DNA of 64,000 nucleotides, taken from Escherichia coli. GTDB lineage: Bacteria; Pseudomonadota; Gammaproteobacteria; Enterobacterales; Enterobacteriaceae. The stretch lies in NCBI RefSeq assembly GCF_003334785.1, contig NZ_QOWV01000001.1. One strand, given 5' to 3'. The notes beneath the pieces are model-generated. The model worked only from the letters and a program-made list of their open reading frames with translations. It was not told the DNA's origin and made no database searches. The translations under genes were made by a program, and so were the position numbers. Every line of letters starts with the position of its first letter. Position 1 is the first letter of the stretch. Positions 59,016 through 59,233 of the stretch are shown here, one piece after another.

Positions 59016-59037
59016 AATCAATCCAGCCCCTGTGAGT

Positions 59038-59057
59038 TACTGTATGGATGTACAGTA
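59038..59057 (-). promoter_or_regulatory. LexA operator (SOS box) of sulA
   Basis: tactgtatggatgtacagta: perfect CTGT-N8-ACAG palindrome, 23 bp upstream of sulA start. Confidence 0.9.
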
Positions 59058-59233
59058 CATCCAGTGACAACAAAGATCAACCCTATTTTCGGAAAGAGCC
59101 TCGCAAATTTTGTCGTTGGTGACGGGAAAACATAAATTAATCTTGCCCCTTAAGAATAAGTTGCCTATTTTCGTAGTTAACGGATCCGTTAATGTGAATC
59201 ATTCTTTTATGTTATGATTTTAAAAGGAATTTT

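Follow-up and report, generated by a model that had tools for sequence, protein, structure and literature searches.

The sulA-sxy intergenic region of Escherichia coli: the known LexA operator of sulA beside a probably independent sxy promoter

The gap between the divergently transcribed genes sulA and sxy most probably contains a pair of back-to-back sigma-70 promoters that work independently and have a regulator each, and the LexA box within it would then be an operator of sulA only. This reading builds on sequence elements, transcription start sites (TSSs), conservation, a co-occurrence pattern and a lack of co-expression that were all observed directly, together with -10 and -35 hexamers of both genes that we assign tentatively. 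An earlier note on this DNA had pointed to the box and had asked whether LexA occupancy influences sxy. Its anatomical observation of the sulA box is confirmed, and was already known; a coupling of LexA to sxy is unsupported, with geometry, phylogeny and expression all speaking against it.

The locus and the LexA operator of sulA

The window (the whole 64-kb stretch of DNA that was analysed) carries matP, ompA, sulA (-), sxy (+), yccS (-) and yccF in that order. A 3.5-kb comparison with MG1655 shows a single mismatch, which lies within ompA (window position 57884, A here and T in NC_000913.3), and the sulA-sxy part is identical; the DNA is thus of a K-12-like strain other than the MG1655 reference. 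Window coordinates equal NC_000913.3 positions minus 961,904. A 1.55-kb query around the sulA-sxy gap matches all complete E. coli genomes (5,426/5,426), where the genes are annotated as sulA, sxy and yccS. The ORF list and the RefSeq annotation, which for sulA is that of identical DNA, give sulA as 58506-59015 on the minus strand, encoding the SOS cell-division inhibitor (169 aa, identical to MG1655 b0958), and sxy (tfoX) as 59234-59863 on the plus strand, encoding a 209-aa protein with TfoX_N and TfoX_C domains (Pfam PF04993/PF04994 on homologues). In the annotation sulA begins with the ATG at 59015, as against the TTG at 59021 in the mechanical ORF list, and the intergenic region therefore spans 59016-59233, or 218 bp rather than the 212 bp of the earlier note. 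The same note's description of sulA and sxy as divergent neighbours that share one intergenic region with the sulA SOS box is correct.

The sequence TACTGTATGGATGTACAGTA is present exactly where a LexA box had been reported (59038-59057), and matches the LexA consensus TACTGTATATATATACAGTA at 17/20 positions. All three mismatches fall in the central AT spacer, so that the word "perfect", as applied to the box by the earlier note, is apt for its arms (TACTGTA...TACAGTA) and not for the spacer. No other site in the 64-kb window has three or fewer mismatches to the consensus, none of 100 dinucleotide shuffles contained such a match, and the box is likewise the only occurrence of CTGT-N8-ACAG in the window. 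The published heterology index of the sulA box is 5.4, which marks it as a strong, though not the best, SOS box. Between the edge of the box and the sulA ATG lie 22 nucleotides, or 23 by subtraction, which is the distance that had been given.

The TSS of sulA falls at 59045 on the minus strand (Kim et al. 2012 TSS table, NC_000913.2 position 1,020,172 (-), converted), leaving a leader of 30 nt. A putative -10 hexamer, TACTGT (59052-59057, minus strand), lies inside the LexA box at a distance that fits the published TSS, and is separated by 17 bp from a putative -35 hexamer, TTGATC (59075-59080, minus strand, GATCAA on the plus strand; -35 to -30), which is part of a block, AAAGATCAAC, that is invariant in 21 aligned Enterobacteriaceae sequences. 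The box covers -12 to +8 of this promoter and overlaps both its core and its TSS, as expected of an SOS operator. Since it does so, a bound LexA dimer would block RNA polymerase and keep PsulA off, and RecA-stimulated cleavage of LexA would derepress sulA. In sequence and in position the element is the same as the E. coli sulA (sfiA) promoter-operator, from which it shows no difference, and TACTGTATGGATGTACAGTA is thus the textbook, already known LexA operator of sulA. In an AZT/lexA3 RNA-seq study, sulA was induced 20-fold by AZT and was 15-fold lexA-dependent (PMC11228462), and 26.7-fold induction by nalidixate has been published for Salmonella sulA.

The sxy promoter, its CRP-S site and its leader

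That the sxy promoter also lies inside the shared region, as the earlier note had it, is upheld by two TSS maps, which agree on an A at 59179 (plus strand); the leader that precedes the ATG (59234) runs from 59179 to 59233 and measures 55 nt. Kim 2012 lists this start at NC_000913.2 1,020,306 (+) with 124 reads, and Cappable-seq independently finds it at 1,020,306 (+) with a score of 58.6; it is 134 bp from the sulA TSS. Candidate hexamers are TTGCCC for the -35 (59143-59148, plus strand, -36 to -31), in the invariant block ATCTTGCC, and, 17 bp downstream, TATTTT for the -10 (59166-59171, plus strand, -13 to -8), in the conserved block TAAGTTGCCTATTTTC. A simple promoter scan of the region detected neither the sulA nor the sxy promoter; both deviate from consensus, and the scan is uninformative. 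Sinha and Redfield (2012) had mapped the start of sxy transcription to a G that precedes the ATG by 115 bp and corresponds to 59119. There is no start at that position in either Cappable-seq or Kim 2012, and it would put the CRP-S site described below at -21.5; 59179 was used instead.

Between the two promoters lies the CRP-S site of sxy (TTT-CGGAA-AGAGCC-TCGCA-AAT, 59087-59108, plus strand). Its published half-sites, TTCCG (distal) and TGCGA (proximal) (PMC6728893), map to CGGAA-N6-TCGCA at 59090-59105; the 22-mer has the highest CRP-S-like score in the intergenic region, and both half-sites are conserved. By sequence and TSS maps, it is centred on -81.5 relative to the sxy TSS, near a class I-type position, and on -52.5 relative to that of sulA. 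Activation from this site is reported to require CRP-cAMP together with Sxy, and in laboratory media the autoactivation loop is not switched on (PMC6728893). The half-sites, their orientation and their place upstream of sxy agree with the CRP-S autoregulated sxy promoter of Jaskolska and Gerdes (2015), as cited in PMC6728893; the -81.5 position is derived here from genome-wide TSS data. Psxy would accordingly be pictured as a weak promoter that CRP and Sxy activate at the CRP-S site, in a positive autoregulatory loop.

Seen from sxy, the LexA box is on the far side of the CRP-S site, at -141 to -122 from the TSS. It overlaps no sxy promoter element, is neither within nor next to the sxy core promoter, where an operator shared in the manner of uvrA-ssb would be found, and falls outside the footprints of RNA polymerase and CRP at sxy, and it is therefore not placed to regulate sxy directly. 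This suggests that the LexA box controls sulA only.

Three further features of the sxy leader were observed. A weak Cappable-seq TSS (score 3.4) lies at 59225, 9 nt before the sxy ATG, and a conserved TATGATTT with a -10-like TATGAT occupies 59212-59219, just upstream of the sxy Shine-Dalgarno sequence; together these may constitute a minor promoter, whose sxy mRNA would have almost no leader. A perfect 16-bp palindrome, TTAACGGATCCGTTAA, at 59177-59192 straddles the sxy +1 (-2 to +14), its left half, TAACGGATC, being nearly invariant across Enterobacteriaceae and its right half variable; it could be an operator, a signal in the initial transcribed region or a leader structure. In the MFE fold of the leader, GGAUCCGUU (59182-59190) is paired to codons 7-9 (AGCGGAUCU, 59253-59261), with the Shine-Dalgarno sequence and the AUG enclosed. 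A regulatory RNA structure in the leader was rejected as a candidate, given a z-score of only -1.45 and partner sequences that vary without clear compensation.

Conservation of the gene pair and expression of its members

A scan of species-representative genomes yielded 20 usable loci (Escherichia, Citrobacter, Intestinirhabdus, Enterobacter, Lelliottia and one Raoultella-labelled MAG), and in every one of them sulA is divergent from sxy, at a distance of about 217 bp. The alignment of 21 Enterobacteriaceae sequences resolves into separate blocks that do not vary, set in DNA that does: the arms of the LexA box, the sulA -35 block, both CRP-S half-sites, the two blocks that hold the putative sxy hexamers, the left half of the palindrome at the sxy +1, and the -10-like element in the leader. 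Sampling was extended with 50%-identity representatives, their contigs and cluster names, by which the sulA-sxy pair was found to be kept in Salmonella, Tatumella, Rosenbergiella/Tatumella and Providencia, and in one locus with other flanking genes (L028). From Escherichia to Providencia, the LexA box is at the same place in all loci in which sulA adjoins sxy (26/26), and its arms are invariant in 25 of these, the remaining locus, of E. albertii, having one substitution in a flanking base. On the strength of these genomes, the adjacency of sulA and sxy appears to be an old, conserved synteny within Enterobacterales.

The loci that lack sulA separate the two control elements. Enterobacteriaceae bacterium ESL0689 and Plesiomonas keep ompA-sxy and have neither sulA nor a LexA box, so the box is not retained with sxy where sulA is lost. 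In ESL0689 a CRP-S-like site does persist, as far from the sxy ATG as in E. coli; in Plesiomonas only a possible reversed TGCGA half-site was seen by eye, and no CRP-S site is evident at the Rosenbergiella/Tatumella locus. As judged from these sequences, the LexA box seems to go with sulA, and the CRP-S site generally with sxy.

Beyond these groups, sulA is not adjacent to sxy in Vibrio or in the other distant sxy-bearing contigs examined. H. influenzae tfoX presumably adjoins recA, which would make adjacency of sxy to an SOS gene recurrent; one widely sampled TfoX cluster (218 aa) has gyrB, a flavodoxin gene and adk as neighbours, not recA. A 276-bp contig with coverage of about 1.1 (NZ_VLXZ01000190.1), assigned to Alkalicoccobacillus porphyridii (Bacillales), codes for a 99% identical match to residues 76-167 of E. 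coli Sxy; E. coli DNA has almost certainly contaminated that assembly. The L028 locus (2114-2195), whose Sxy is 37% identical and whose intergenic region measures 416 bp, has a CRP-S-like TTTCTGAAGCCAGATCGCAAAA 40 nt from its LexA box and 327 nt from the sxy ATG, and a canonical-looking CRP site, AAATGTGATCATTTACAG, nearer to sxy.

Expression was compared in the PRECISE compendium (Sastry 2019), as log-TPM values of sulA, sxy and five genes of the LexA regulon in the first 49 of its 278 samples. There sulA correlates with dinB (r = 0.84), polB (0.64), dinJ (0.61) and uvrB (0.60). The correlation of sxy with sulA is r = 0.22 (p = 0.13) and with dinB r = 0.16, in samples that include neither lexA mutants nor full SOS induction and in which sxy is near the detection floor, such that a conditional effect would be invisible; sxy mRNA does not co-vary with the LexA regulon in this set, and it stays flat where sulA is up 6-8 fold, a result that these limits weaken without overturning it. 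By rank, sulA and sxy are weakly positively related (Spearman rho = 0.32, p = 0.03), and a published meta-analysis counts both among the genes up-regulated by multiple stresses. The main text of the AZT/lexA3 study (PMC11228462) does not mention sxy, and our literature search found no link between sxy and either LexA or the regulation of sulA. At the other end of sxy, the gene converges with yccS, the two 3' ends overlapping by 38 bp (59826-59863), and the two mRNAs are anticorrelated (r = -0.54, 49 PRECISE RNA-seq samples).

Possible coupling of the two promoters

If LexA or PsulA activity gated sxy, the competence regulon of E. coli would have a natural signal for its induction, and DNA damage would be linked to DNA uptake in enteric bacteria. 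The simplest form of such gating, in which LexA itself represses or modulates sxy, whether from the sulA box, through looping or through obstruction of an upstream Psxy element, or from a second, cryptic box, is extremely unlikely and can be called already disfavoured. It has in its favour the proximity of the box to the sxy promoter within one 218-bp region, and the existence of other divergent pairs, among them uvrA-ssb, for which a single shared SOS box has been described. However, neither the intergenic region nor the rest of the 64-kb window contains a second LexA-like site, the box has its centre at -131.5 relative to the sxy start, farther upstream than the activator site, and both its loss together with sulA and the absence of co-expression described above speak against a role at sxy. 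The uvrA-ssb pair itself offers little encouragement. Like sulA-sxy, it consists of divergent genes with one LexA box in their common intergenic region, and its box is described as lying within the ssb promoter region, whereas the box of sulA-sxy lies 122-141 bp before the sxy TSS; yet even at this true shared box, the lexA dependence in the AZT RNA-seq data was 4.4-fold for uvrA and 1.0-fold for ssb (PMC11228462). We infer that LexA has no effect on sxy, though a weak or conditional indirect effect is possible.

An indirect effect could arise from interference between the promoters, and the strongly conserved position of the CRP-S site at -42 to -63 of PsulA leaves room for it. Once LexA is off, RNA polymerase at PsulA might, through alpha-CTD/UP contacts at about -40 to -60, hinder CRP-Sxy, such that SOS dampens sxy; or CRP-Sxy at -52.5 might modulate sulA; or negative supercoiling from divergent transcription at PsulA might stimulate the weak Psxy. 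We regard interference of any of these kinds as unlikely, but several details of the region would fit it. The CRP-S 22-mer begins 6 bp beyond the sulA -35, and a conserved T-tract, TATTTTC, forms an A-tract at -44 to -38 of PsulA. Between the end of the LexA box and TCGCA lie 43 nt in 23 loci, 42 nt in Tatumella and 40 nt in L028, while the stretch from TCGCA on to the sxy ATG is anywhere between 132 and 327 nt long. However, the 6-bp gap offers little room for insertions or deletions, and the constant spacing may be passive; moreover, the differences of 1-3 bp in the deeper lineages would rotate the helix face, which argues against a phase-specific contact. By the spacing rules for CRP, a centre at -52.5 is no classical position for activation. 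In the four samples where sulA is highest (up 2.7-2.9 log2, or 6-8 fold), sxy is slightly lower (-0.2 to -0.36 log2), as dampening would have it, but these shifts are within noise (SD 0.49 log2).

A related and quite improbable proposal, drawn from the arrangement of the sites, is that the element shared by the two genes is the CRP-S site and not the LexA box, in which case polymerase at derepressed PsulA and CRP-Sxy might exclude or modulate each other, and so switch the cell between SOS division arrest and the competence regulon. SulA and Sxy are both reported substrates of Lon, and in a looser version of the same proposal massive synthesis of SulA could stabilise Sxy via this shared dependence on Lon.

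Links between competence and SOS elsewhere, for example in Vibrio cholerae, involve the same two pathways as sxy and sulA. They act, however, via incoming single-stranded DNA or via regulon membership and not through a shared operator, and the sxy gene of Vibrio is not beside sulA. According to reviews, transformation induces SOS in V. cholerae, and arrays in H. influenzae showed no induction of SOS genes by Sxy. For sulA and sxy the evidence points away from gating and toward the two-promoter reading, with neighbouring promoters that are separately wired. The value of the region is then that of a well-understood landmark, correctly read, and of a precise map on which promoter interference at sulA-sxy can be tested.

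One E. coli strain provides material for such work. In NH-21 (NZ_CP148034.1), a 768-bp IS1 (1002-1769 of the extracted locus) with an 8-bp target duplication, AAAGAGCC, is inserted at the equivalent of window positions 59093-59100. It sits exactly in the 6-bp spacer of the CRP-S site, splitting the half-sites and shifting the sulA promoter and LexA box 776 bp from sxy, and NH-21 is thus a natural mutant suited to testing both sulA/sxy coupling and sxy autoregulation.
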